Source: Candidatus Doudnabacteria bacterium RIFCSPHIGHO2_02_FULL_42_25 (GTDB lineage Bacteria; Patescibacteriota; Doudnabacteria; UBA920; O2-02-FULL-48-8). Taken from it: DNA of 64,000 nt. The stretch spans positions 128,880-192,879 of the forward strand of contig MFEQ01000006.1 of NCBI GenBank assembly GCA_001777665.1, read 5' to 3'. A model generated the notes under the pieces. The model was not told the DNA's origin and did no database searches. It worked only from the letters and a program-made list of their open reading frames with translations. Shown here piece after piece: positions 3,067 through 35,392 of this stretch. Numbering within the stretch: position 1 is the stretch's first letter; each line of letters starts with the position of its first letter. A program made the translations under genes and the position numbers.

Positions 3067-4001
3067 ACCGTCCGGGCTTCTGCTTCAACCACTTTCTCGC
3101 TGATTTCTGTTTCGTTGACAATCGTGAGACGAGTAATGGCAAATAACAATATCAAACCTCCGACGATTTGCATGCCCGACAATGTCGCACCCAAAAAAAT
3201 CCAGTTCACGAGTACAGCAGCCAGAGGAAAAGCCAATTCACACAAAGTCGCGACAGATGCTTTCGTCGATTTCAAACCATAGTAATAAATAAGCAGTGAT
3301 ACAAATCCAGCTATAATCGCTGTCATGAACACATAAAACCAATCTTTTGATGATGCAGTCGTGATCTGATTTAAAGTACCATAGTAAATGTTCATGAAAA
3401 ACAAAAATATTAGCGCTGATATAAATCTCAAACTCGTCATCATCTGGAAACTAGCTTTGCGCAAAACATAACGTCCAAACACGGTAGATCCACCCCAGAA
3501 AAATGCTGCACCGAGAGCCAAGACAACACCAATCATGTTTGAATCCCAGGTAAATCCTGTTGGCTTCAAATTTGGGAAAGAAATTACGTATGCCCCAAAA
3601 ATTGCGACTATTGCCCACATCCAAAAATTCTTGGACAATCTTTCACCCAAAACAAAAGTTGCTAACCCAATGGCAATCAAGGGCTGCAATTTTTGAAGGA
3701 GAATCGCAACTGTCGGGTTTAGATAATGAAAACTTTGTGTAAATAAAACAGTAGCCAGTGCCGAACCTCCGAAACCGATAAATAATACCGAGACCCATTC
3801 GCGCCCAGATAAATTTTTCAGTTCAGATACTCTCGGGATGAATAGAAATAATACCAAAACTGCAATCAAAATATGCTCCATCAAAACAATTGCAGTCGAA
3901 GACAAATCTGTAGTTAGAAATTTCCGAAACGGAGCATCTATCGCCCAAAGCACTGCGGCCAGAGTCACAAACCAAGGACCCATATTATTTAATTTATTCA
4001 T
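3063..4001 (-). CDS. EamA/DMT-family transporter (10 TM)
   Basis: 312 aa with two EamA-like halves and ~10 hydrophobic helices. Confidence 0.75.
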   Translation of the reverse strand: MNKLNNMGPWFVTLAAVLWAIDAPFRKFLTTDLSSTAIVLMEHILIAVLVLFLFIPRVSELKNLSGREWVSVLFIGFGGSALATVLFTQSFHYLNPTVAILLQKLQPLIAIGLATFVLGERLSKNFWMWAIVAIFGAYVISFPNLKPTGFTWDSNMIGVVLALGAAFFWGGSTVFGRYVLRKASFQMMTSLRFISALIFLFFMNIYYGTLNQITTASSKDWFYVFMTAIIAGFVSLLIYYYGLKSTKASVATLCELAFPLAAVLVNWIFLGATLSGMQIVGGLILLFAITRLTIVNETEISEKVVEAEARTV

Positions 4002-4238
4002 AAAAAATAAAATGCCTTATTTCAGGGCATTGGCAAAAAACACAAGCCTTCTTTCATCCAGACTATACTGTCGCCCCCGGAATTACACCGGATCATGTCC
4101 CGAATCGGGACTCGCGGGGTTTACCGCCGGTGGGGACATTCTCCCCGCCCTGAAGGTTACTTATTGCTTTTATTATATTTAGTAAATAGTAATTAGTAAA
4201 GAGTAATAAGAATTCTAGCTCTTATTACTAATTACTTC

Positions 4239-4589
4239 TTACTTATTACTCTTAAAGAACTCTCGAGCCATCTTTTCGTCTTCTTTCATCTGCTCTATCA
4301 ACTCTTCTTTGGTTTTGAATTTTATACTCGGCCGTGTTTTTTTGATCAGCTCCACTTCTAGCTCTCGATCATATAAGTTGCCTTCAAAGTCCAAAATATA
4401 CACTTCCACTTTCTGCTTTATTTCTCCAAAAGTTTCTGCGGCCCCGACAAAAACCAAAGAGGGTTTAGTATCGGCCAGCCCGAAATACAATCCGTTCTCA
4501 ATTTCGACAGGAATTTTTAAATTCGCTGTCGGAAAACCCATCTCTTTTCCCCGCCCTTTACCTTTTAACACTTTGCCTTTAAATTTCAT
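4239..4589 (-). CDS. Riboflavin kinase (monofunctional, bacterial RibF C-domain type)
   Basis: GKGRGKEMGFPTANL (PTAN motif) and EVYILDFEGNLYDRELEVEL, the riboflavin-kinase core. Overlaps the upstream gene by 11 nt. Confidence 0.85.
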   Translation of the reverse strand: MKFKGKVLKGKGRGKEMGFPTANLKIPVEIENGLYFGLADTKPSLVFVGAAETFGEIKQKVEVYILDFEGNLYDRELEVELIKKTRPSIKFKTKEELIEQMKEDEKMAREFFKSNK

Positions 4590-6926: not shown

Positions 6927-8384
6927 CTAAATTTTTTTGACTATTCCCTTGTTTGTATCTAACTCAACTAAATCTCCATCCTTAAAAATCGACGTTGCTA
7001 TTCTTGTTCCTATTATCGAACTGATGCCTAACTCACGGCTTACTATGGCCGCGTGACAAGTCAATCCACCTTCATCTGTCACAACAGCCGCGGCCTTACG
7101 CATTGCTGGCACGAAATCTGGTGAAGTCATTGCCGTCAAAAGAATTTCTCCTTTTTTCATTTTAGATGCTTCTGCAGCGGTTAACATTCTTCTAATCCTA
7201 CCTTTCAGTATAGATTTGCTACCGACGCTCCCCACGATCCCTTTCACTTCATTAGCTTTGCTGATCTTTTCTGTATATTTTGAAAGATGCTGTTTCGCTT
7301 TCTTTCCAATTATAACTTCCAATATTTTTCCATTTTTTGAATTTACAAAAATAACGTTGTTAATCCGTTTTCTGGCCAAATCTTTTAAAATATTCATTTT
7401 CTTTTTCTTTGTTAAAAGATTAATTTCAACCAAATCCAGATATTTTAATTCTTTTAAAGTTAGCTGAGTCTGCTTTGAAATATTTCTCAATAACAAATCT
7501 ACGGCATAGTGAATTCGGAAATGAACACTTTTTCTCTCGTCAGCAGTTGTGATAAGAGTCTGGACAGTATTAATCAATCTTCTATATTTATTTAACTCAT
7601 ATTCATTAATTGTATTTTTTTGTTCTTTGGCTAACTCAAAGTTTTCCAAAAGTATTTTATCAATTTTCGATTTCAACCATTTTTTGTTTTTAACTTCCAA
7701 TGATGTGAGCGTGTCCTCAAAATACTGATTGTCCCAGTATAATGGGCCATCGTAACCAAACGGAATCCATCCAAATTTATCAGATAAATTTCGAGCTAAT
7801 TTTTTCTTATTCTTTCCAGATTTGACGGCAAGAGCTGATTTGTAACGCGCAAGCTCCTCCTGAGTGGTTAAAGAAAGAGTTCTGGGAAGAAATAGTCGAA
7901 CAATTTTTACTCTAGGAATATTCAGTTTTTCCAATTCCAAATATAAATAGTCTTTTAAAGCTTCTGCTCCCACAAACCATGGCAAGGTGTTTATTCGATC
8001 ATATTTAAACCAAAGTTTTTGTAAATAAAACAAAGACTTGATAGATTTCGTTAATGTAAAATTTCCAGTTTTTAATTGTTCAAGAAATGTTAAGACGGCT
8101 TTTTCTAATGCTTGTCCTGTTTTTAACTGGTCCCTATGTATTCGAGAAAAGTAGTTCGGATGATGAATAAAATATCTTAATAAGTGTTGAGCTATTTTAT
8201 TCCACTCCTTTTGTTCATAAATCCAAATCCCCTTACCATCTTCAAAGAATAAGACATCGCAGTTAAATTTAATCCCGTGAATTTTTAGCATCTCGGGATG
8301 ATTTTTAGAAATAGTATTCCAGACCGAGGGGAGATAATCTATATTTCTCGCTCGAGGAATTAAATATCCTTTTTTGGGTAGCAT
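6927..8384 (-). CDS. Swivel-domain paralog A: divergent N-terminal domain + PEP-utilizing-enzyme mobile (phosphohistidine) domain
   Basis: 485 aa. C-terminus GEILLTAMTSPDFVPAMRKAAAVVTDEGGLTCHAAIVSRELGISSIIGTRIATSIFKDGDLVELDTNKGIVKKI matches PF00391 (GG.TSHAAI.ARE.G.P...G). Confidence 0.8.
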   Translation of the reverse strand: MLPKKGYLIPRARNIDYLPSVWNTISKNHPEMLKIHGIKFNCDVLFFEDGKGIWIYEQKEWNKIAQHLLRYFIHHPNYFSRIHRDQLKTGQALEKAVLTFLEQLKTGNFTLTKSIKSLFYLQKLWFKYDRINTLPWFVGAEALKDYLYLELEKLNIPRVKIVRLFLPRTLSLTTQEELARYKSALAVKSGKNKKKLARNLSDKFGWIPFGYDGPLYWDNQYFEDTLTSLEVKNKKWLKSKIDKILLENFELAKEQKNTINEYELNKYRRLINTVQTLITTADERKSVHFRIHYAVDLLLRNISKQTQLTLKELKYLDLVEINLLTKKKKMNILKDLARKRINNVIFVNSKNGKILEVIIGKKAKQHLSKYTEKISKANEVKGIVGSVGSKSILKGRIRRMLTAAEASKMKKGEILLTAMTSPDFVPAMRKAAAVVTDEGGLTCHAAIVSRELGISSIIGTRIATSIFKDGDLVELDTNKGIVKKI

Positions 8385-10326: not shown

Positions 10327-11364
10327 CTAAATTTTTCTAACTGTGCCCTTATTCGCATCTACTTCTACCGAATCTCCGTCTTTTAGAACTCTAGTAGCAT
10401 ACTTAGTTCCTACTATACATGGTTTCTTCAACTCACGGGCAGAAATTGCAGCATGTGAAAGCATACCTCCCGCATCTGTTACAAAAGCGGCAGCTTTTCT
10501 CATTAGCGGCAAAAATTCTGGCCTCGTCATTCCGGTGACTAAAATATCTCCTTTTTTAAACCCTTTTGATTCTTTAGGATCAAGTATAACTAAAGCCTTA
10601 CCCTTTACTAATCCTGGAAATGCTGGTTGACCCTTTATCTCCTCTCCTGTTTTTTCTATGCTTTTTTCAAATTTATCTGAATCTCTGCCCACTTTAAGCT
10701 GAACTAATCCATTCCTGTAAATAATAGCGCACGACTTATATCTACTCGCCAATTCCTTTTTTGCTGGAAGGTTCCCAGTTTTCCAGTACTGATCAATCTC
10801 CTCACGCGTGACATATAAAACATGTTCTTTCTTGTAGCGAGTCTTTGTTGCGATTTGCTTTGCCATTAATTCCATGAATTTTTCTGTTTCGGCAAAAACA
10901 GGTTCTGCATATAACCGCGCCTTTTGAAGCTGCGGCAAGAATTCTTTATACTTAGCGGGAGGCAAACTATCAACAACCACCTTCACTACACGATGTGGGA
11001 CGCAGTACTCATAAAGATATTTAACAAATTTATTATAGTCTTCAGCATCTATAGTTTTCTTTCTTGAAGTGACATTGATAAAATTTAGAATCTGATCGGT
11101 TTTAGCAATTAAATCCTGGGTCCAATGCAGTAGTTGTCGTTTATTCGTTACAATTTTATCAGCCAAATACTGACTGAATTTTTTATAGTTACCCGCGTTG
11201 AGATAACAAGTACTGTAACCAGAATGAGAAATGAATATCGCTCTATCAAAACCATACCCCAAAGACTTTTTGAGTAGTTTAGTATATTGATAACCGAGAT
11301 GGGAGTTATTAAGTAATTTCCAATGCCCAGCCCAATGTTTTATCCATTCTTCTCGATTACTCAT
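10327..11364 (-). CDS. Swivel-domain paralog C (short class)
   Basis: 345 aa. ...VTDAGGMLSHAAISARELKKPCIVGTKYATRVLKDGDSVEVDANKGTVRKI. N-terminus aligns with B along its length. Confidence 0.8.
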   Translation of the reverse strand: MSNREEWIKHWAGHWKLLNNSHLGYQYTKLLKKSLGYGFDRAIFISHSGYSTCYLNAGNYKKFSQYLADKIVTNKRQLLHWTQDLIAKTDQILNFINVTSRKKTIDAEDYNKFVKYLYEYCVPHRVVKVVVDSLPPAKYKEFLPQLQKARLYAEPVFAETEKFMELMAKQIATKTRYKKEHVLYVTREEIDQYWKTGNLPAKKELASRYKSCAIIYRNGLVQLKVGRDSDKFEKSIEKTGEEIKGQPAFPGLVKGKALVILDPKESKGFKKGDILVTGMTRPEFLPLMRKAAAFVTDAGGMLSHAAISARELKKPCIVGTKYATRVLKDGDSVEVDANKGTVRKI

Positions 11365-27654: not shown

Positions 27655-28815
27655 TTATTTTTTAATTAAACTATATAACATTGTCAGAGCGCCGACAGCA
27701 ATAAAAACTTCGATGATTGACCCATTTGAGGTAAGAATCCAAATCGCCAACAATGCCGTGACGACTTTTCCGATAGCCAGACTAAACTCAAAAAATACCC
27801 CGTAGGCGATGGCAAAATCTGGTCCTCTGGCTCCTGCGATTTGAAAAGTCCGATGCAAAAGTGGTACGCCTATAAAGGCCTTGCCGACTCTGGTGAGGAC
27901 ATCGAAGATCACGACCCCACTAAACGAATTGGCGAAAATCCGGAAGACCCAAGTTAGTCCATAGAATACCGCAGCTGTTGGCAGTAAATTCAGTTTCTGG
28001 TATCGATCGAGTATCCGTCCTAAATATAACATTAACATGACTGCAATCACACTGGCAAACGTCACGATAATCCCAATTGATGAAAATTTCGGAACAATTG
28101 TAAAAATAAAAATCGGCCACAAAGTCATGAGCATTAAATCTTCAGCATAACCCCAGTACCCAAAAAAGTTCCGTGGATATAACCTGAAAATTCGCCAAAA
28201 ATTTTTAAATCGAAATTCGTGCCTGGTATAAATTTCTGGAGAAAGAAAAAGCGGATATACAGAAATCACAGTCAGAGTGGCCGCGCATACAAACAAAATC
28301 AGAAAACCAAATTGATACGAAATAAATCCCCCCAATATCGGTCCGAGGATCGCTGCGAATTCAATCACTGAAAATAATACGCCGACTTCCCGCCCTCGTT
28401 GAATTTTTACATTGTTCAAGGCAACATCAGCATTGTAAGGCGGCCAGAACAAAGATTTCTGGAATGCAAATAAAATCGGGGCGACATAAAACAACAAAGG
28501 TTCGGATTCTATACCATATAGCGTTAACCAATAAGTGATTTGAAAAATCGCGGCATAAAGCATAGCGTGCTTATAGCCAATGATGCTCGTGACTTTTGTA
28601 ATTGGAATAACAAACAACGCATACGCCACATAAACCATCAAATAAAAATACATTATATCGACCACCGAATAGCCCAAAGTAATTAGGTAAATTGGTTCGA
28701 AGATATATGCCAAATTTATGGCCAAATTAAAAAGACCGGTATTCCAGTAAAGTTCTTTTACTTCACGATTTAGTTCATGGGAAAAGTAATGATATCTTCT
28801 GGGTATTAAGAGCAT
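27655..28815 (-). CDS. MFS-type transporter
   Basis: 386 aa, ~11-12 TM. MFS motif A LGRILDRYQK. Confidence 0.65.
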   Translation of the reverse strand: MLLIPRRYHYFSHELNREVKELYWNTGLFNLAINLAYIFEPIYLITLGYSVVDIMYFYLMVYVAYALFVIPITKVTSIIGYKHAMLYAAIFQITYWLTLYGIESEPLLFYVAPILFAFQKSLFWPPYNADVALNNVKIQRGREVGVLFSVIEFAAILGPILGGFISYQFGFLILFVCAATLTVISVYPLFLSPEIYTRHEFRFKNFWRIFRLYPRNFFGYWGYAEDLMLMTLWPIFIFTIVPKFSSIGIIVTFASVIAVMLMLYLGRILDRYQKLNLLPTAAVFYGLTWVFRIFANSFSGVVIFDVLTRVGKAFIGVPLLHRTFQIAGARGPDFAIAYGVFFEFSLAIGKVVTALLAIWILTSNGSIIEVFIAVGALTMLYSLIKK

Positions 28816-29476
28816 TTGCTATTTGTTTCTCTGTTATCGGGCCTACTCTTAATATTTTAGCATCTTTAATCATAGAAACCACTGTGGATGGTTTAGTTTT
28901 CCGGAGTTTGCCACCATCTAGGTAGAAATCGGGCTTTCCGCCAGCTGGCGGATTTGAACTTTGAAATTGCTTTTTTACTTGCTCCACCGAATAAGTATTG
29001 GGTTGTCCAGAAACATTGGCGGATGTCGTGGTGATCGGTTTACCGAACTTTTTCACGAGTTCTAATGCAATTTTGTTCTTCGGCCAACGGATGCCCAGTG
29101 TTCCAGTTCCGGCTGATAATTTTTTCCAAGACTTCCCTTTTGCCTTAAGTGGCAAAACAATCGTCAAGGGGCCTGGCCAAAACTTTCGGATTAACTTCTT
29201 CGCATCAGGAGTTACCTTCACAATCCGACTTAGCCATTTACTACCATACTCTGTAGTATGATAGTATTCGCCAGGGATTATTACATGAGTTGGCTTTCGA
29301 AAGTGACGGCCCTTGAGTCGATAAAGTTTGGCCACTGCTTCTGGATTTGTCGCATCAACAGCCAAACCATAAGCGGTGTCAGTTGGGTAAACGACGATAC
29401 CACCAGCTTTGAGGATTTTTACAGCGAAAATTATTTCCGCTATTCTTCTCCCCTTGCGGGAGAAGATGTCAGCCAT
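28775..29476 (-). CDS. tsaC: L-threonylcarbamoyladenylate synthase (TsaC/YrdC/Sua5 family)
   Basis: VYPTDTAYGLAVDATNPEAVAKLYRLKGR...KPITTTSAN YrdC motifs. Start taken at MADIFSRKG (29476), not track ORF 29566. Confidence 0.8.
   Translation of the reverse strand: MADIFSRKGRRIAEIIFAVKILKAGGIVVYPTDTAYGLAVDATNPEAVAKLYRLKGRHFRKPTHVIIPGEYYHTTEYGSKWLSRIVKVTPDAKKLIRKFWPGPLTIVLPLKAKGKSWKKLSAGTGTLGIRWPKNKIALELVKKFGKPITTTSANVSGQPNTYSVEQVKKQFQSSNPPAGGKPDFYLDGGKLRKTKPSTVVSMIKDAKILRVGPITEKQIANALNTQKISLLFP
29443..29468. repeat. 25-nt hairpin-containing direct repeat, copy 1 (inside tsaC 5' codons), flanking DUF559 gene
   Basis: tcttctccc-cttgc-gggagaagatg; copy 2 at 29888-29913 is catcttctccc-gtcaa-gggagaagatg. 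Confidence 0.6.
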
Positions 29477-29840
29477 TTCGGCTTTTGACAAGCCGGCTGA
29501 CAGATGAGGGGGAGTTGAGGTAGTCTTTGATTTTATTAATAAGCTGTTTTTCATGTTTAAGTTCACTATTCCAAAACCTAAGAACGATAAAACCTTGAGA
29601 TTCTAAATGCTTACCCCTTGTTGTATCTTTTATTTTTGCTTCAGCTTGACGGTGAGGATTACCGTCCAGCTCAATAATTAACCTTTTTTCAAAACAACAA
29701 AAATCAACTATGTAATTATCTATCCAAACCTGTCTTCTGAACTTATACCCCAGCTGACGATCTTTAATTAAAAACCAGAGTCTCTTCTCTTCAGGTGTTT
29801 GTTGCTTTCGTAATTCTTTTGATAACTTAGCCTTTGGCAT
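29469..29840 (-). CDS. DUF559 / Vsr-like endonuclease-domain protein
   Basis: 123 aa. ...FKFRRQ..IDNYIVDFCCFEKRLIIELDG..H... typical of DUF559 (very-short-patch-repair-endonuclease fold). Stop overlaps the tsaC start. Confidence 0.65.
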   Translation of the reverse strand: MPKAKLSKELRKQQTPEEKRLWFLIKDRQLGYKFRRQVWIDNYIVDFCCFEKRLIIELDGNPHRQAEAKIKDTTRGKHLESQGFIVLRFWNSELKHEKQLINKIKDYLNSPSSVSRLVKSRNG

Positions 29841-29887
29841 ATAACACCCTCATCTGTCCGAGCACAAATATATTCTTACAATCGGAC

Positions 29888-29913
29888 ATCTTCTCCCGTC
29901 AAGGGAGAAGATG
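29888..29913. repeat. 25-nt hairpin direct repeat, copy 2
   Basis: See 29443-29468. Confidence 0.6.
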
Positions 29914-29922
29914 ATTTGTAAT

Positions 29923-32829
29923 TTACTTAACCACGAAATTTATCAATTTATCCTGAACGAAAATCTCTTTGACTATTTGTTTGCCTTCCAGGTGACGCTT
30001 GACGTTTGGATCTACTATCACTTTTAATCGAACTTCGTCTTGGGAGGTGCCTACAGGAAAATCCAAAGTCGCCCGAACCCGGCCCAAAACTTGTACAACT
30101 ATTTTTACGTTTTTATCTTCAGTCATTTTTTCATCAAACTTTGGCCAGGGTTGTGTATGGATAGAATCTGTCTGCCCAAGTTGGCTCCATAATTCCTCTG
30201 TGATGTGGGGAGCGAAAGGTGCTAGTAAAATCAAAAATGTTTCCCAGTTTGCTTTCGACATCTGTTTATTTTCATTCAGGAATTCCATAAACGCCGCAAT
30301 TGATGTGTTGAATTTAAAATTCGGAATATCTGAAGTGATTTTTTTGATGAGTTTGTGTAACCCCATCTCGACCGACGGGAGAGATCGCTCTTGAGAGGGA
30401 TTTCTCACTTCGTTCGAAATGGTTCTAAAAACCTTATCTAAGAACCTTCTAGCGCCGATTAGACCTTTGGTATTCCAAGGCTGACCATCTTCAAACGGTC
30501 CCATGAACATTTCATATATACGCATGGAATCAGCACCCACACTTTCCACCACTTCGTCAGGATTGACTACATTACCCCTACTCTTACTCATTTTCTGACC
30601 ATCCGCCCCTTGGATCAATCCGAGATGACGAAGTTTATTAAAGGGTTCTGCAACTTTCACAAATCCAGCGTCAAACAAAAATTTTGTTAAAAACCGGGAA
30701 TAAAGTAAGTGAAGTGTTGCGTGTTCGGGTCCGATGACATAAAGATCCACTGGCATCCAATGATCGACTTTTGACTGTTCAAAAATTTCTTGGTCATTAT
30801 GCGGATCAGTATATCGCAAATAATACCAAGAAGAATCAAAGAAAGTATCGAGAGTCTCTGGTTCTCTTTTGGCAGGTCCGCCACAATTCGGACAACTAAC
30901 ATTTAAGAATTGTTCTGAACTGGCGAGCGGAGGCATTCCTTTGGGGCGAAAATCGACATCGTCCGGCAGAACCACTGGTAAATCTTTTTCAGGGACTGGA
31001 TGAATTCCACATTTTTCGCAATTGATCATCGGGATGGGCACGCCCCAATATCGCTGCCTGGAGATAGACCAATCACGGAGTCGATACTGAACTTTAGGTG
31101 TACCGAAATCTTTAGCCATTTGAGATCTAATCGTCGAGGAACTAACATCATTGTATTTCCCAGAATTCATAATCCGACCTTCGCGAGTATAAGGTAGTCT
31201 GCGATCACCTTCATCATTCACCACCCGAACAATTGGCAATTCAAATTTTTTCGCAAATTCAAAGTCACGCTCATCGTGTGCCGGGACAGCCATAATCGCT
31301 CCTGATCCATAAGTCGACAACACATAATCCGCAACCCAGATTTGAATTTTATCTTTCGTTGCCGGGTTAATCGCAAAAGCCCCAGTGAATACTCCGGTTT
31401 TATCTTTTTCTAGAGCAGTGCGTTCTAGTTCAGTTTTCTTAGCTGCACTTTCTACGTAGTTAACTACGTAGTTTTTCTGTTCTTTGGTCGTAATCTGGCT
31501 AACTAGAGGATGTTCTGGAGCCAAAACCATATACGTCGCACCAAAAATTGTATCCGGCCGGGTCGTGAAAACTTTTATTTTTGGTAAAACAACTTTGAGC
31601 AACTCTGGTTCTTGTAGATCAGTAAAATGTTGTTTAGACGCAGTAGTTTCAAAAAACCCTGAACCAAGCTTCTCTTTTAAGAATTTTAAATACTCTCCCC
31701 GTTTCTTGTCCTCTAACAAATCAGATACCACGGTTCGAAATTTCGTTAACTCTTTTACTTTCTCATAATCGATATCCCAACTAAAGTTTTTCCAAAACGG
31801 TCGTTCTATAGAGCCTGGGAATGTTTTATCAGTAGCAGAAGCAATCAAAATTAATCCCATAATACGACTGTTGTGTCTCATTAGCACTTTTTGCGCGACA
31901 ACACAACCTAAACTATGACCAACGATAATTGTATTCTTATCAATTTTACAATTTTGTAAAACAAAATTAACTTGCTCTTCCTCTTTAGGATCATTGCTAT
32001 TTGGCATTTCAGGAGCTTGAACTTTATACCCTTTACTCTCAATTTCTTGCTTCAACCAAGGAATAAAATTTTTGCCTGGCAAACCAGTATAGCCGTGCAG
32101 AATCAAAAAATTTGGCTCGGATTCAAAGTCAACTTTGAAATCAATATCAGCACCTTCAGACCGGCCGATCCAGTTCTTTTGCATTTGCTTCGTGGCTTCC
32201 GGCCAGTCCAGTCCGTCTAAGTCCGCGAGCAGTCTGTCCGCATAGTCCGTGATTTTGAGAAACCACTGTTCCATTTCTTTCTGGATGACCACTGTACCAC
32301 AACGATCGCACTTACCATCTATTACCTGTTCATTAGCCAGAACTGTTTGATCGTTTGGACACCAGTTGATTTTGGCTTTGGCGCGATAAGCTAACCCTTT
32401 CTTATAGAGCTGGATAAATAACCACTGAGTCCATTTGTAATAATCCGGGCTCGATGTATTGATTTCTCGATCCCAATCATAAGACAGTCCAAACATCTGG
32501 ACTTGGCGTTTGAAATTGGCAATATTTTCCGCTGCAACTTCTTTTGGATTCTTCCCGACCTTGATCGCATAATTTTCTGTAGGCAACCCAAAAGCATCCC
32601 AACCCATGGTGTAGAGCACTTCTTTACCATTGGCACGCGTAAATCTAGCATGAATGTCTTCCGCGATATAACCTTTCGGATGCCCGACATGAAGACCTGC
32701 TGCTGATGGGTAAGGGAAAGTTTCTAATTGATAGAACTTGGGCTTCTTTGAATCATCCTTGGCTTGATAAAGTTTATTATCTGCCCAAAATTTTTGCCAT
32801 TTTGATTCTATTTCTTTGTGGTTATACAT
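29923..32829 (-). CDS. leuS: Leucyl-tRNA synthetase with inserted alpha/beta serine-hydrolase domain
   Basis: HIGH (LHVGHP), KMSKS (KMSKSRGN), editing-domain motifs FTTRPDT and AVPAHDERD. Extra ~185 aa between NWIGRSEG and the CP1 domain carries LILHGYTG...IIVGHSLGCV (GxSxG). Start taken at MYNHKEIESKWQKFW (32829). Confidence 0.9.
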   Translation of the reverse strand: MYNHKEIESKWQKFWADNKLYQAKDDSKKPKFYQLETFPYPSAAGLHVGHPKGYIAEDIHARFTRANGKEVLYTMGWDAFGLPTENYAIKVGKNPKEVAAENIANFKRQVQMFGLSYDWDREINTSSPDYYKWTQWLFIQLYKKGLAYRAKAKINWCPNDQTVLANEQVIDGKCDRCGTVVIQKEMEQWFLKITDYADRLLADLDGLDWPEATKQMQKNWIGRSEGADIDFKVDFESEPNFLILHGYTGLPGKNFIPWLKQEIESKGYKVQAPEMPNSNDPKEEEQVNFVLQNCKIDKNTIIVGHSLGCVVAQKVLMRHNSRIMGLILIASATDKTFPGSIERPFWKNFSWDIDYEKVKELTKFRTVVSDLLEDKKRGEYLKFLKEKLGSGFFETTASKQHFTDLQEPELLKVVLPKIKVFTTRPDTIFGATYMVLAPEHPLVSQITTKEQKNYVVNYVESAAKKTELERTALEKDKTGVFTGAFAINPATKDKIQIWVADYVLSTYGSGAIMAVPAHDERDFEFAKKFELPIVRVVNDEGDRRLPYTREGRIMNSGKYNDVSSSTIRSQMAKDFGTPKVQYRLRDWSISRQRYWGVPIPMINCEKCGIHPVPEKDLPVVLPDDVDFRPKGMPPLASSEQFLNVSCPNCGGPAKREPETLDTFFDSSWYYLRYTDPHNDQEIFEQSKVDHWMPVDLYVIGPEHATLHLLYSRFLTKFLFDAGFVKVAEPFNKLRHLGLIQGADGQKMSKSRGNVVNPDEVVESVGADSMRIYEMFMGPFEDGQPWNTKGLIGARRFLDKVFRTISNEVRNPSQERSLPSVEMGLHKLIKKITSDIPNFKFNTSIAAFMEFLNENKQMSKANWETFLILLAPFAPHITEELWSQLGQTDSIHTQPWPKFDEKMTEDKNVKIVVQVLGRVRATLDFPVGTSQDEVRLKVIVDPNVKRHLEGKQIVKEIFVQDKLINFVVK

Positions 32830-33764: not shown

Positions 33765-33946
33765 GAGGTTTATCGAGTTATTCCCCCTCTTAGGATAAGA
33801 GATGCTCACTCCCTCATCAACCGCCGGGGGCTGGGATAGGGGGAGTTACGGTCAGAGCGTTAAACTGCAGCCTAACCCTTATAGATAACCCCTCCTAACC
33901 TCCCCTTATATTAAGGGGAGGAACAACTGCTGCGTTTTTCAAATCT
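33765..33946. repeat. GC-rich hairpin-dense intergenic element between metG and tatD
   Basis: cctcccctta-tat-taaggggagg perfect 10-bp stem, ctcttaggataagag, and ccgccgggggctggg in an otherwise AT-rich genome. Confidence 0.5.
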
Positions 33947-35392
33947 TTATTCAATCTTTTGGAACAACGGCTCTGGTTTCTTTATATCTCCACTTTCCAA
34001 AACTGCTTTAATTTTTTGGGCGGTCTCGGGTAGAACTGGTGCGAGCTTGAGTGCTATGTCATAAAGCAGTGCGGCCAAATTCAAAAGCAACTCTTTGACT
34101 TTGTCTGGGTGTTCTTTGACCAACTCCCACGGTTTGGCTTTATCGATCAATTGATTGGCCCAAGCAATCTCTTCCCAAATCCGAATTAATCCCCCGGCAA
34201 AATCAGAATTATAAAAAGCATCAGACGCAGCGGACAGATCCTTCGGTGACGCTACAAACTCTTCGATGTGACCATCCAGATATTTTTCTATCATGTTTGT
34301 GGTACGAGAAAACAAATTTCCTAGGCCATTGGCCAAATCGCCATTGAAACGAGCTTTCAATTTCTCTTCACTGACATCGCCGTCAGCTCCAAATGGAATT
34401 TCCCGCAACATAAAGTATCGCACTGCCTCGCTCCCGTATTTCGCCACCCAATCATTCGGGTCGATGGCATTGTCCAAACTTTTCGACATCTTCTCACCAT
34501 TGATCGTAAAAAATCCATGCGCAAAAACTCTTTTTGGTGTATCGAGTCCTATCGCCAAAAGTAGTGCTGGCCAGATAATACAGTGGAACTTGATAATATC
34601 TTTCCCCACTATATGTAAATCCGCTGGCCAAAATTTCGCAAAATTTTCAGGATCTGATCCAAACCCGACACCAGAGCAATAATTGAATAACGCTTCCACC
34701 CAAACATACACAGTTTGGTTCTTATCCCAGGGAATCGGAATTCCCCATTTGACGTTCGGTCGGGAAATCGCAATATCTTCGAGGCCTTGTTTGATAAACG
34801 ACAAGACTTCGTTCTTTCGGGAGAATGGACGAATTTCTAATTGATCTGAATCAATCAATTCTACAAGTTGTTTCTGGTAATCAGACAGTTTAAAAAACCA
34901 ATTTTTTTCTTTTAACTTCTCCGGTTTAGTTTTATGATCTGGACAAAGTCCGTTTACTAATTCTGATTCTTTAATATACGCCTCGTGCCCGACACAATAC
35001 AATCCTTCGTATTCGCCTTCATAAATTTTTCCCGAAGCTTTGAGTTGATGTAAAAAAATCTCCACTGCCGCTTCATGTTCTGGGTCTGTGGTACGGATAA
35101 ACTTATCTGGGGCTATGCCGAGTTGGTCAAAAGCCAAAGAAAATTGTGCGGCAACGGTGTCAGCAAATTCCTTTGGTGCCTTACCGGCTTTTTTAGCAGC
35201 GGCTTCAATTTTTGCGCCGTGTTCGTCTGTGCCAGTTTGAAAAAATACTTCTTCACCTAATTGGCGATGCAGACGAGCCAAAACATCCGCCGCAATCGCC
35301 GGATAAGCTGACCCGATATGTGGTTTATCATTCACATAAAATATCGGGGTCGTGACATAGAATTTTTTCTGCTCGTTTTCCATAGTTTTCAA
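33947..35392 (-). CDS. metG: Methionyl-tRNA synthetase (short form)
   Basis: PIFYVNDKPHIGSAY (HIGH-class), KMSKSLDN, zinc-knuckle region. 481 aa. Confidence 0.9.
   Translation of the reverse strand: MKTMENEQKKFYVTTPIFYVNDKPHIGSAYPAIAADVLARLHRQLGEEVFFQTGTDEHGAKIEAAAKKAGKAPKEFADTVAAQFSLAFDQLGIAPDKFIRTTDPEHEAAVEIFLHQLKASGKIYEGEYEGLYCVGHEAYIKESELVNGLCPDHKTKPEKLKEKNWFFKLSDYQKQLVELIDSDQLEIRPFSRKNEVLSFIKQGLEDIAISRPNVKWGIPIPWDKNQTVYVWVEALFNYCSGVGFGSDPENFAKFWPADLHIVGKDIIKFHCIIWPALLLAIGLDTPKRVFAHGFFTINGEKMSKSLDNAIDPNDWVAKYGSEAVRYFMLREIPFGADGDVSEEKLKARFNGDLANGLGNLFSRTTNMIEKYLDGHIEEFVASPKDLSAASDAFYNSDFAGGLIRIWEEIAWANQLIDKAKPWELVKEHPDKVKELLLNLAALLYDIALKLAPVLPETAQKIKAVLESGDIKKPEPLFQKIE

Follow-up and report, generated by a model that had tools for sequence, protein, structure and literature searches.

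In REP/REPIN-RAYT systems a small enzyme gene is flanked by inverted short palindromic repeats, solo copies and inverted doublets of which are found genome-wide, and Vsr itself is a nuclease that nicks DNA at T:G mismatches. Homing endonucleases with a Vsr fold have been described as the 'EDxHD' family, including I-Bth0305I (PMC3424549, PMC9403480). BoxC/PIT/TM repeats, noted since the 1990s and present in thousands of copies in proteobacteria and cyanobacteria, have no function assigned; they are purine-motif intrastrand-triplex repeats (Holder et al. 2015, PMC4666352, citing Bergler 1992, Bachellier 1999 and Hoyne/Maher 2000), whose E. coli form, TMECO, reads CCCTCNCCC N3-6 GGGNGAGGG N3 GGGNGAGGG. 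The repeats number 23 in MG1655, five as inverted pairs, and 3610 in 262 proteobacterial genomes; their triplexes are stable in vitro, their loci are hypervariable, and no transposase, integrase or other mobility function was seen near them (PMC4666352). DUF559, for its part, is a very large uncharacterised nuclease family that includes E. coli YcjD and the solved structure 3HRL. Here we analyse a stretch of 64,000 nucleotides (nt) from Candidatus Doudnabacteria bacterium RIFCSPHIGHO2_02_FULL_42_25 (contig MFEQ01000006.1, positions 128,880 to 192,879; hereafter the window), in which a DUF559 gene lying between leuS and tsaC is enclosed by inverted repeats that resemble BoxC/PIT/TM.

Each of these repeats is a module of about 75 nt in which a pyrimidine arm and a purine arm are followed by a variable second hairpin and then by a purine box, the mirror of the purine arm. 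The parts of the element are listed below by position in the window.

29469-29840, minus strand: DUF559 open reading frame (ORF), 372 bp, 123 amino acids (aa); Vsr-like PD-(D/E)xK nuclease by match, with the motif VDF...E-L-D-G..H
29843..29916, minus strand: left (upstream) module, inverted with respect to the right module
29911-29903, minus strand: pyrimidine arm of the left module, TCTTCTCCC, followed by the loop TTGAC
29897-29889, minus strand: purine arm of the left module, GGGAGAAGA
29888-29855, minus strand: second hairpin of the left module, TGTCCGA...TCGGACA
29855-29847, minus strand: purine box of the left module, AGATGAGGG, which doubles as the DUF559 Shine-Dalgarno sequence
29439..29514, plus strand: right (downstream) module, overlapping both the DUF559 ORF at its 3' end and the first 11 tsaC codons
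29444-29452, plus strand: pyrimidine arm of the right module, followed by the loop CTTGC
29458-29466, plus strand: purine arm of the right module
29467-29502, plus strand: composite second hairpin of the right module
29502-29510, plus strand: purine box of the right module, AGATGAGGG
29917..29922, minus strand: short A/T-rich leader between the leuS stop and the left module; approximate left boundary of the insertion, set against the empty sites L027 and L029 (L numbers denote comparison loci)
29441..29476, minus strand: element-derived 5' end of tsaC, with the new ATG (29474-29476) in the 3' arm of the second hairpin and ATA (29441-29443) at the position of the ancestral ATG

The arm pair TCTTCTCCC-N5-GGGAGAAGA occurred exactly twice in the window (29444-29466 and 29889-29911) and never in 100 dinucleotide shuffles, even when 2 mismatches were allowed. 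The initial annotation was therefore right that two hairpin copies flank the 372-bp ORF, whose TGA stop (29469-29471) overlaps tsaC codons 2-3 (ATGGCTGA), but its statement that they bracket the ORF exactly holds only approximately, as the edge of the upstream hairpin lies 46 nt ahead of the DUF559 ATG. Nor are the copies best described as 25-nt direct repeats, since their inverted match (24/27) is better than the direct one (21/25) and the hairpins form the outer part of longer inverted ends. The upstream hairpin (29887-29913) has a perfect 11-bp stem, CATCTTCTCCC/GGGAGAAGATG, and the downstream one, hairpin B (29444-29468), a 9-bp stem; exactly 28 nt inside each hairpin lies one half of a perfect 12-nt inverted pair, GACAGATGAGGG at 29499-29510 and CCCTCATCTGTC at 29847-29858. 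With hairpins and boxes at equal spacing, the ORF therefore has symmetric inverted ends of at least 65 nt, as terminal inverted repeats (TIRs) do.

A covariance model built solely from 18 high-GC soil-metagenome copies of the module matched both the left (40.1 bits, E=4.4e-10) and the right module (47.5 bits, E=2.4e-12), as well as a third copy between metG and tatD (E=0.004), and a model-free triplex finder run on the window gave exactly 3 motifs, against 0 in 20 shuffles. In each flanking module, 9/9 positions of the purine arm GGGAGAAGA and the box AGATGAGGG are compatible with triads (the finder scores the left module 8/8), and folding of the single-stranded DNA gave two hairpins per module and a single-stranded box (z=-3.7 left, z=-6.2 right). 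Triplexes lie outside the folding model used (ViennaRNA), and the computed evidence for a triplex consists of triad compatibility together with hairpin folding. Among 23 distinct modules, arms and boxes covaried: the own-pair score was 195/207 against 161 ± 4.6 for permuted pairs, a value reached by 0/20,000 permutations, and C.G*G was exchanged for T.A*A three-way at positions 1, 3 and 9. The second (loop-2) hairpin also showed compensatory double changes in 4/5 pairs, with 100% of cells paired. These relations suggest that the box could in principle, by folding back, supply the third strand of an intrastrand triplex of the purine motif. Module identity between the window and L006/L012, two loci with homologous DUF559 genes, was 81-84%, compared with about 15% at the 4-fold sites of the ORF; the modules are thus far better conserved than 4-fold sites and must be regarded as functional parts, not as decaying footprints.

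The modules share with BoxC/PIT/TM the order of pyrimidine arm, loop, purine arm and mirroring purine third strand (G*G.C, A*A.T, T*A.T), and in both cases the repeats are mostly intergenic, dispersed, often in inverted pairs and at hypervariable loci. They differ in the stem, which is TCTTCTCCC and not CCCTCNCCC, and in loop 2, which in the window measures 33-35 nt and contains its own covarying hairpin, whereas short loops characterise the known motifs (1-6 nt in ITxF, 3 nt in TMECO); with a loop of about 35 nt, the window variant would be missed by the published search (loops of up to 6 nt). Moreover, one window copy overlaps two coding regions, and the pair brackets a nuclease gene, while published work reports no associated mobility gene or function. 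Judged by sequence, we file the window modules as a BoxC/PIT/TM variant with a loop-2 hairpin, distinct from canonical TMECO. Integron attC sites, IS200/IS605 hairpin ends, hammerhead-like cores (GAUGAG) and base-pairing of the box to the arm of the hairpin were also considered and were ruled out on sequence logic alone.

The genes on either side, which like the DUF559 ORF lie on the window's minus strand, are:

29923-32829, minus strand: leuS, Pfam LeuRS match, the host gene upstream of the insertion; stop codon at 29923-29925
28775-29476, minus strand: tsaC as a whole, ATG at 29474-29476
28775-29440, minus strand: body of tsaC (Sua5/YrdC), the flanking host gene downstream of the insertion; Pfam Sua5_yciO_yrdC, E=9e-48

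The gene order metG-tatD-leuS-tsaC-MFS-SHMT-PAP2 (MFS, major facilitator superfamily; SHMT, serine hydroxymethyltransferase) is kept in relatives, and at three of their junctions (L027, L028 and L029) leuS and tsaC overlap as ATGA or TAATG, with no cassette or hairpin. As the genes overlap at these empty sites, about 480 bp (29444-29922) have been inserted in the window; in L026, the junction consists of a 161-nt spacer with an ORF-less doublet of a different subtype. The 18 TsaC orthologues aligned usually start with M-x-x-I-x-x-A-V-K-I-L-K, and those at empty sites have no hairpin-encoded extension. Window TsaC has 11 extra N-terminal residues (MADIFSRKGRR), of which residues 3-11 (D-I-F-S-R-K-G-R-R) are encoded by hairpin B, in agreement with the earlier proposal that one repeat forms the first tsaC codons. 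Because TsaC from empty sites lacks the extension and the module flanks DUF559 genes unrelated to tsaC, these alignments show that tsaC borrowed its start codon and 11 residues from the element, and not the reverse. TAA and GTAAA were examined as candidate target-site duplications of the window cassette and rejected as incompatible with the ancestral TsaC N-terminus. Overall, we are highly confident of the module architecture and of the insertion, and the small inserted cassette that had been suspected at this locus is borne out by the junctions of close relatives and by its presence in a second context (see below).

A different origin had been proposed for the hairpins, namely that a tiny cassette had duplicated the 5' end of tsaC on insertion and left them as a target-site duplication or a recombination footprint. 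It is true that the two copies share 20/20 stem bases and flank the ORF, and an 8-bp repeat (ACACGGTT) at E. coli pstA|pstB shows that short duplications can accompany this class of repeats. Nevertheless, no hairpin copy exists at the empty sites L027, L028 and L029, where the ancestral TsaC starts 11 residues later, and hairpin and box also flank DUF559 in the fpg context described below and on more than 100 unrelated metagenome contigs. A duplication of this sort is further contradicted by the better inverted match, by the symmetry over at least 65 nt and by the conservation of the repeats, which far exceeds that of synonymous sites and is unlike that of a footprint. We consider it extremely improbable.

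An identical DUF559 protein is encoded on other Candidatus Doudnabacteria (Candidate Phyla Radiation, CPR) contigs, e.g. GCA_001780055.1, and homologues at 72-74% identity (dN about 0.2-0.26, dS saturated) were found in two contexts. The first is again leuS|tsaC, in another Doudnabacteria species (L009-L011), and the second is upstream of groES/EL, with fpg on one side and a hypothetical gene on the other (L006-L008, L012); neither a second DUF559 copy nor fpg was found within the 64-kb window. The layout is the same throughout and reads, in gene direction, hairpin, variable GC hairpin, purine box (the ribosome-binding site), ORF, complementary box, variable hairpin and hairpin. It recurs in the L006-L012 homologues and around a second, more divergent DUF559 gene of L009, so that the flanking of other DUF559 copies by the repeat, on which the earlier proposal of a mobile cassette had hinged, was indeed observed, beside genes unrelated to tsaC and also as solo copies and doublets in many phyla.

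L026 is the nearest relative of the window in the set (SHMT 85%, MFS 74% identity) and is without the cassette, while L009, the most distant (SHMT 71.5%, MFS 57%, TsaC 62.5%, LeuS 52%), carries it at the identical junction and at the same nucleotide positions. The DUF559 proteins of the window and L009 are 74% identical, above the 52-71.5% of the flanking proteins. These identity matrices, used here in place of a tree, favour independent acquisition of the cassette by the window and L009 at this one junction. The third triplex motif of the window, in the metG|tatD spacer (33805-33950, minus strand; core 33886-33926), reads CCTCCCCTT aatat AAGGGGAGG tta GGAGGGGTT and has a degenerate inverted partner. 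This doublet is homologous to that at leuS|tsaC in L026, with about 90% identity over the left 60 nt or so, and the metG|tatD junction is empty in L026 and L029, where the genes overlap. The doublet sits at metG|tatD in the window and at leuS|tsaC in L026, and the positions of ORF-less forms therefore also differ between related genomes. Finally, in a Bacteroidetes genome (GWA2_32_17, MENF01000111.1, positions 3880-4350; L023) leuS contains an in-frame insertion of an entire DUF559 domain, flanked on either side by triplex motifs, and the leuS ORF stays open over 1120 aa.

Further modules were seen in L009. One is a solo module between tsaC and the MFS gene (7043-7089), and the second DUF559 gene, which encodes 116 aa, is 45% identical and lies between a VTT-domain gene and parB (10872-11319), is bracketed by the other module subtype, CCCTCCCCT/AGGGGAGGG. 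Since L009 holds two DUF559/module types, several nuclease and module subtypes coexist in one genome.

These positions also bear on whether DUF559 could be an ordinary resident gene, its inverted ends being RNA signals that, through long-range 5'/3' pairing, mask the ribosome-binding site of a nuclease that may be toxic, and its hairpins acting as mRNA stabilisers or terminators. The box is the ribosome-binding site, and in the predicted fold of the full cassette transcript the 5' and 3' ends are paired and the Shine-Dalgarno box is sequestered (-141 kcal/mol, z=-4.8); forward modules often lie just after stop codons, and the upstream hairpin is terminator-like on the plus strand, antisense to the genes. 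Such signals leave unexplained the ORF-less doublets and solo modules at unrelated junctions, the empty sites, the second context and the three-way covariation of purine arm and box, purine-motif triplexes not being formed in RNA (PMC4666352). Rfam returned no relevant family for the window region and eight module-bearing loci, the sole match being an unrelated Bradyrhizobium small RNA beside one module. Long-range pairing is expected of any inverted-repeat element, and for this reason pairing of the ends in the full-length transcript, if it occurs, may represent at most an added regulatory layer. We therefore regard a purely RNA-based role in a resident gene as quite improbable.

The window protein matches Pfam DUF559 (PF04480) with E=1.6e-34 and 118.5 bits, well above the gathering cut-off of 20.6, and can be assigned to the family. 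It also matches NCBIfam PRK09767, the YcjD model (E=1e-22, 80 bits), far under the equivalog cut-off of 218. Its nearest solved structure is 3HRL (E=1e-17), with the acidic/His motif aligned, and the motif VDF...E-x-D-G..H is intact in the DUF559 homologues too. By family and motif, the window DUF559 is thus a predicted Vsr-like PD-(D/E)xK nuclease. It is the only ORF of the cassette (Pfam: DUF559 alone), which contains no transposase, and PADLOC gave only a marginal DpdF match.

Taken together, we favour, with moderate confidence, a composite interpretation in which the 480-bp or so insertion is a selfish cassette encoding a nuclease that works on the triplex-forming ends of the cassette itself. 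How this action would proceed is proposed more tentatively. The DUF559 nuclease would recognise and cut its own modules, either as palindromic duplex or as extruded hairpin/triplex, and the break would be repaired by recombination against a cassette copy, with the arms of about 70 nt serving as homology; both the enzymology and the mode of spread in this scheme are inferred. The ORF could thereby home into ORF-less doublets or into allelic empty sites, and the modules would act as non-autonomous partners, as REP/REPIN do to RAYT. In the window, the start of tsaC now falls within the element, and its translation is probably coupled to that of DUF559, so that the cassette would not easily be lost. 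Locally, this illustrates how an element of this kind can remodel the beginning of an essential gene (tsaC, t6A synthesis) and may entrench itself.

Several described systems resemble such a cassette in part. Like REP/RAYT, as generally known, it combines one small enzyme gene with inverted repeats, occurs alongside solo and doublet copies, and has a repeat subtype that tracks the enzyme clade. However, its enzyme is a Vsr-like PD-(D/E)xK hydrolase and not an HUH/Y1 transposase, and its repeat has a third, triplex-type segment, so that the resemblance would be one of function and not of membership. With the homing endonucleases of Vsr fold it shares that fold and, in the L023 leuS, an in-frame insertion in an essential gene, and, judged by protein identities, it may also share the occupation of the same site in non-sister genomes while closer relatives lack it. 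Unlike them, it is free-standing, with no intron or intein and with long structured inverted ends, and the window protein, of 123 aa, has no extra DNA-binding domain. Miniature inverted-repeat transposable elements (MITEs), TIR transposons and Rickettsia palindromic elements likewise have terminal inverted repeats and ORF-less derivatives and are tolerated in coding sequences; compared with MITEs and TIR transposons, the cassette has no DDE or other transposase and no consistent target-site duplication, the single 8-bp case in E. coli apart.

Whether the link between DUF559 and the modules extends beyond Doudnabacteria was then judged from loci chosen only by DUF559 similarity. Within them, 31 of the 45 covariance-model matches fell no more than 150 nt from a DUF559 gene, a zone that makes up 5.7% of the sequence (P=2e-28). 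Modules were present at all the GTDB loci picked by protein similarity alone (13/13), and beside DUF559 in 12/12 PLSDB genera (Synechocystis, Deinococcus, Azospirillum, Pseudanabaena, Neisseria gonorrhoeae, Picosynechococcus, Methylobacterium, Shinella, Photobacterium, Sphingomonas, Lelliottia and Qipengyuania), the finder reporting them in 10 and inspection by eye, which showed short all-G/C versions, in the other 2. Module subtype follows DUF559 clade: arms of the TCTTCTCCC type are common to the closest homologues, and arms of the CCCTCCCCT or CATCTCCCC type are seen in more distant ones. Many DUF559 protein tails (...PSSV...SSPARGEE or PSPQPSPxGRG) are translated modules. According to published work, 'DUF559 domain-containing protein' is enriched among predicted inversion targets, with an odds ratio of 14 (PMC9881135). 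Arrays of triplex motifs in alternating orientation were also noted downstream of DUF559 in N. gonorrhoeae (L156, 3484-4178; period of about 281 nt) and Photobacterium (L160, 3357-4939; about 148 nt).

The approach was also taken in the reverse direction, from the repeat. An exact-pattern scan of metagenomes with CTTCTCCC-N5-GGGAGAAG yielded at least 148 hairpins at at least 120 loci, and, among the matches listed, which are also the basis of the following statements, 120/148 hairpins were followed by G[AG][TA]GAGGG within 70 nt. Their consensus is CCTTCTCCC-CTTGY-GGGAGAAGG-GTG-[variable hairpin]-GGATGAGGGG. Both orientations of the module are seen; many copies form inverted doublets with a spacing of 84-145 nt and others are solo, in high-GC, cyanobacterial, soil and gut contigs, and the modules can accordingly be called dispersed multi-copy repeats. 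Of the 8 DUF559 genes present at these hairpin-selected loci, 7 had a hairpin no more than 152 nt away. The soil-copy covariance model also matched the sequence between E. coli ycjD and fabI (E=1e-8). This sequence corresponds to 'BoxC', and the class is confirmed by the published description of BoxC/PIT/TM.

In E. coli, ycjD (b1289) is flanked by triplex-type motifs and is present in 3377/5426 complete genomes. It occupies the sapF-fabI site at which other phylogroups carry eefRABCD, with at least 2 independent replacements (PMC12817139). YcjD and N. gonorrhoeae 3HRL belong to the same protein family as the window protein and their genes are similarly flanked by triplex-type motifs, with YcjD also variably present among strains; they differ from the window case in that the proteins are only about 42-46% identical to the window DUF559 (tblastn) and that the modules of E. 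coli have the short loops of BoxC. Genomes with ycjD had more motifs than those without (3.4 against 2.2 megablast places), a weak trend confounded by phylogroup. In K-12 (NC_000913.3, 1351000-1352400; L151), a perfect 16-bp hairpin, CACCTCATTCTGACAA(11)TTGTCAGAATGAGGTG, precedes ycjD and its 3' arm contains the ribosome-binding site and the GTG start, while on the 3' side a duplicated fragment of the ycjD 3' end is followed by a BoxC motif before fabI.

Two other E. coli loci were inspected. At pstA|pstB of EDL933 (L164, 1177-1268), a 92-bp segment with a reverse BoxC motif, found in about half of E. coli genomes, is flanked by the 8-bp direct repeat mentioned above, which is single in the short alleles (L165, L166) and has a third octamer copy inside the insert; the repeat could be a target-site duplication or reflect deletion between repeats. 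At tusA|zntA, the second triplex-motif locus, no empty allele was found, only insertions of REP/BIME (bacterial interspersed mosaic elements) and of ORFs.

The most serious competitor of the selfish cassette holds that modules arise or are spread through some process with no relation to DUF559 (another transposase, replication slippage or recombination hot spots, for example), and that DUF559 is a passenger ORF or a host repair nuclease for triplexes or hairpins. A passenger would survive thanks to a ready-made ribosome-binding site and hairpins, and adjacency would reflect regulation or local instability. Most modules do lack a nearby DUF559 gene, which was found near only about 6% of metagenome hairpins among the matches listed, and E. 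coli strains without ycjD still carry triplex motifs; both observations weigh against the cassette interpretation. Triplex-motif loci of E. coli are, moreover, intrinsically hypervariable (PMC4666352), with REP/BIME and other ORFs also inserting there, two modules in L046 enclose an unrelated 104-aa ORF, and Vsr-family enzymes include repair nucleases (PMC3424549; Caulobacter VsrA). On the other hand, seen from the DUF559 side, adjacency is near-universal (13/13, 12/12 and E. coli) and covers 7 or more phyla or classes, and module subtype tracks DUF559 clade; a housekeeping repair gene would also not be expected to come and go at single junctions or to sit in-frame in leuS. Spread by an unrelated route thus seems unlikely to us, though it deserves more weight than the alternatives considered above.

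The selfish-cassette interpretation, which we retain, has further points against it. The same-site gain is based on identity matrices in which LeuS disagrees with SHMT, MFS and TsaC. The cassette is fixed and identical in all contigs of the species examined, with no within-population polymorphism seen. Compared with the empty sites, the window cassette shows no target-site duplication and no clean right boundary, and about 15 nt after hairpin B could belong to the element or to tsaC; the tail 'AGCGGAAATAA', common to the window and L006, is ambiguous in the same way, being either transduced tsaC sequence or part of the element end. In addition, a hydrolytic nuclease of 123 aa without strand-transfer domain does not provide the transposase of a TIR transposon or MITE. 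Finally, the boxes of one Doudnabacteria DUF559 subfamily (L019, L020) break the mirror rule, with 6/9 triads, and the triplex rule may fail for some module subtypes. The modules concerned, near 3903-3955 and 4403-4454, have the form CATCTCCCC/GGGGAGATG ... GAGAGGTAG.

The repeat class and the protein family are each known, and it is their systematic pairing, together with the loop-2-hairpin variant, that appears to be new in the literature searched, where no paper linking DUF559 to BoxC/PIT/TM repeats was found. The physical link, seen from CPR bacteria to E. coli, Neisseria, Deinococcus and cyanobacteria, provides each of the two orphans with a candidate partner and makes the old question of these repeats directly testable in E. 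coli. In its broadest form, DUF559/YcjD nucleases would be the cognate enzymes of BoxC/PIT/TM repeats across bacteria, each clade breaking its own module and propagating both itself and ORF-less modules. We see this generalisation as possible but rather doubtful at present. If true, it would amount to a REP/RAYT-like autonomous/non-autonomous system based on a PD-(D/E)xK nuclease and a non-B DNA structure, and would account for the 'genomic instability' that has been reported for such repeats.

Some minor observations concern the repeats and the two host genes. The 104-aa ORF of L046 (1640-1954) is Cys/His-rich and is flanked by two modules in the same orientation (CACCCTCATCCTrGC plus hairpin; 1554-1976); it had no Pfam match and no similarity to DUF559, and another small gene may thus use these repeats. 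In window LeuS, residues 239-354 (31768-32115, minus strand) are an inserted alpha/beta-hydrolase domain (Ser_hydrolase/Abhydrolase_1) just before the CP1 editing domain (...KVFTTRPDTIFG), which is also present in L027 and L009 and absent from L026 and L029, and the DUF559 insert in the leuS of L023 occupies this same CP1-junction site. Inside tsaC, a perfect 14-nt palindrome, CCGCCAGCTGGCGG (28938-28951, minus strand), codes for an extra PPAGG that is absent from most TsaC orthologues and present in few (P0131; partly P0122 and P0129), and looks like a small in-frame palindromic insertion.

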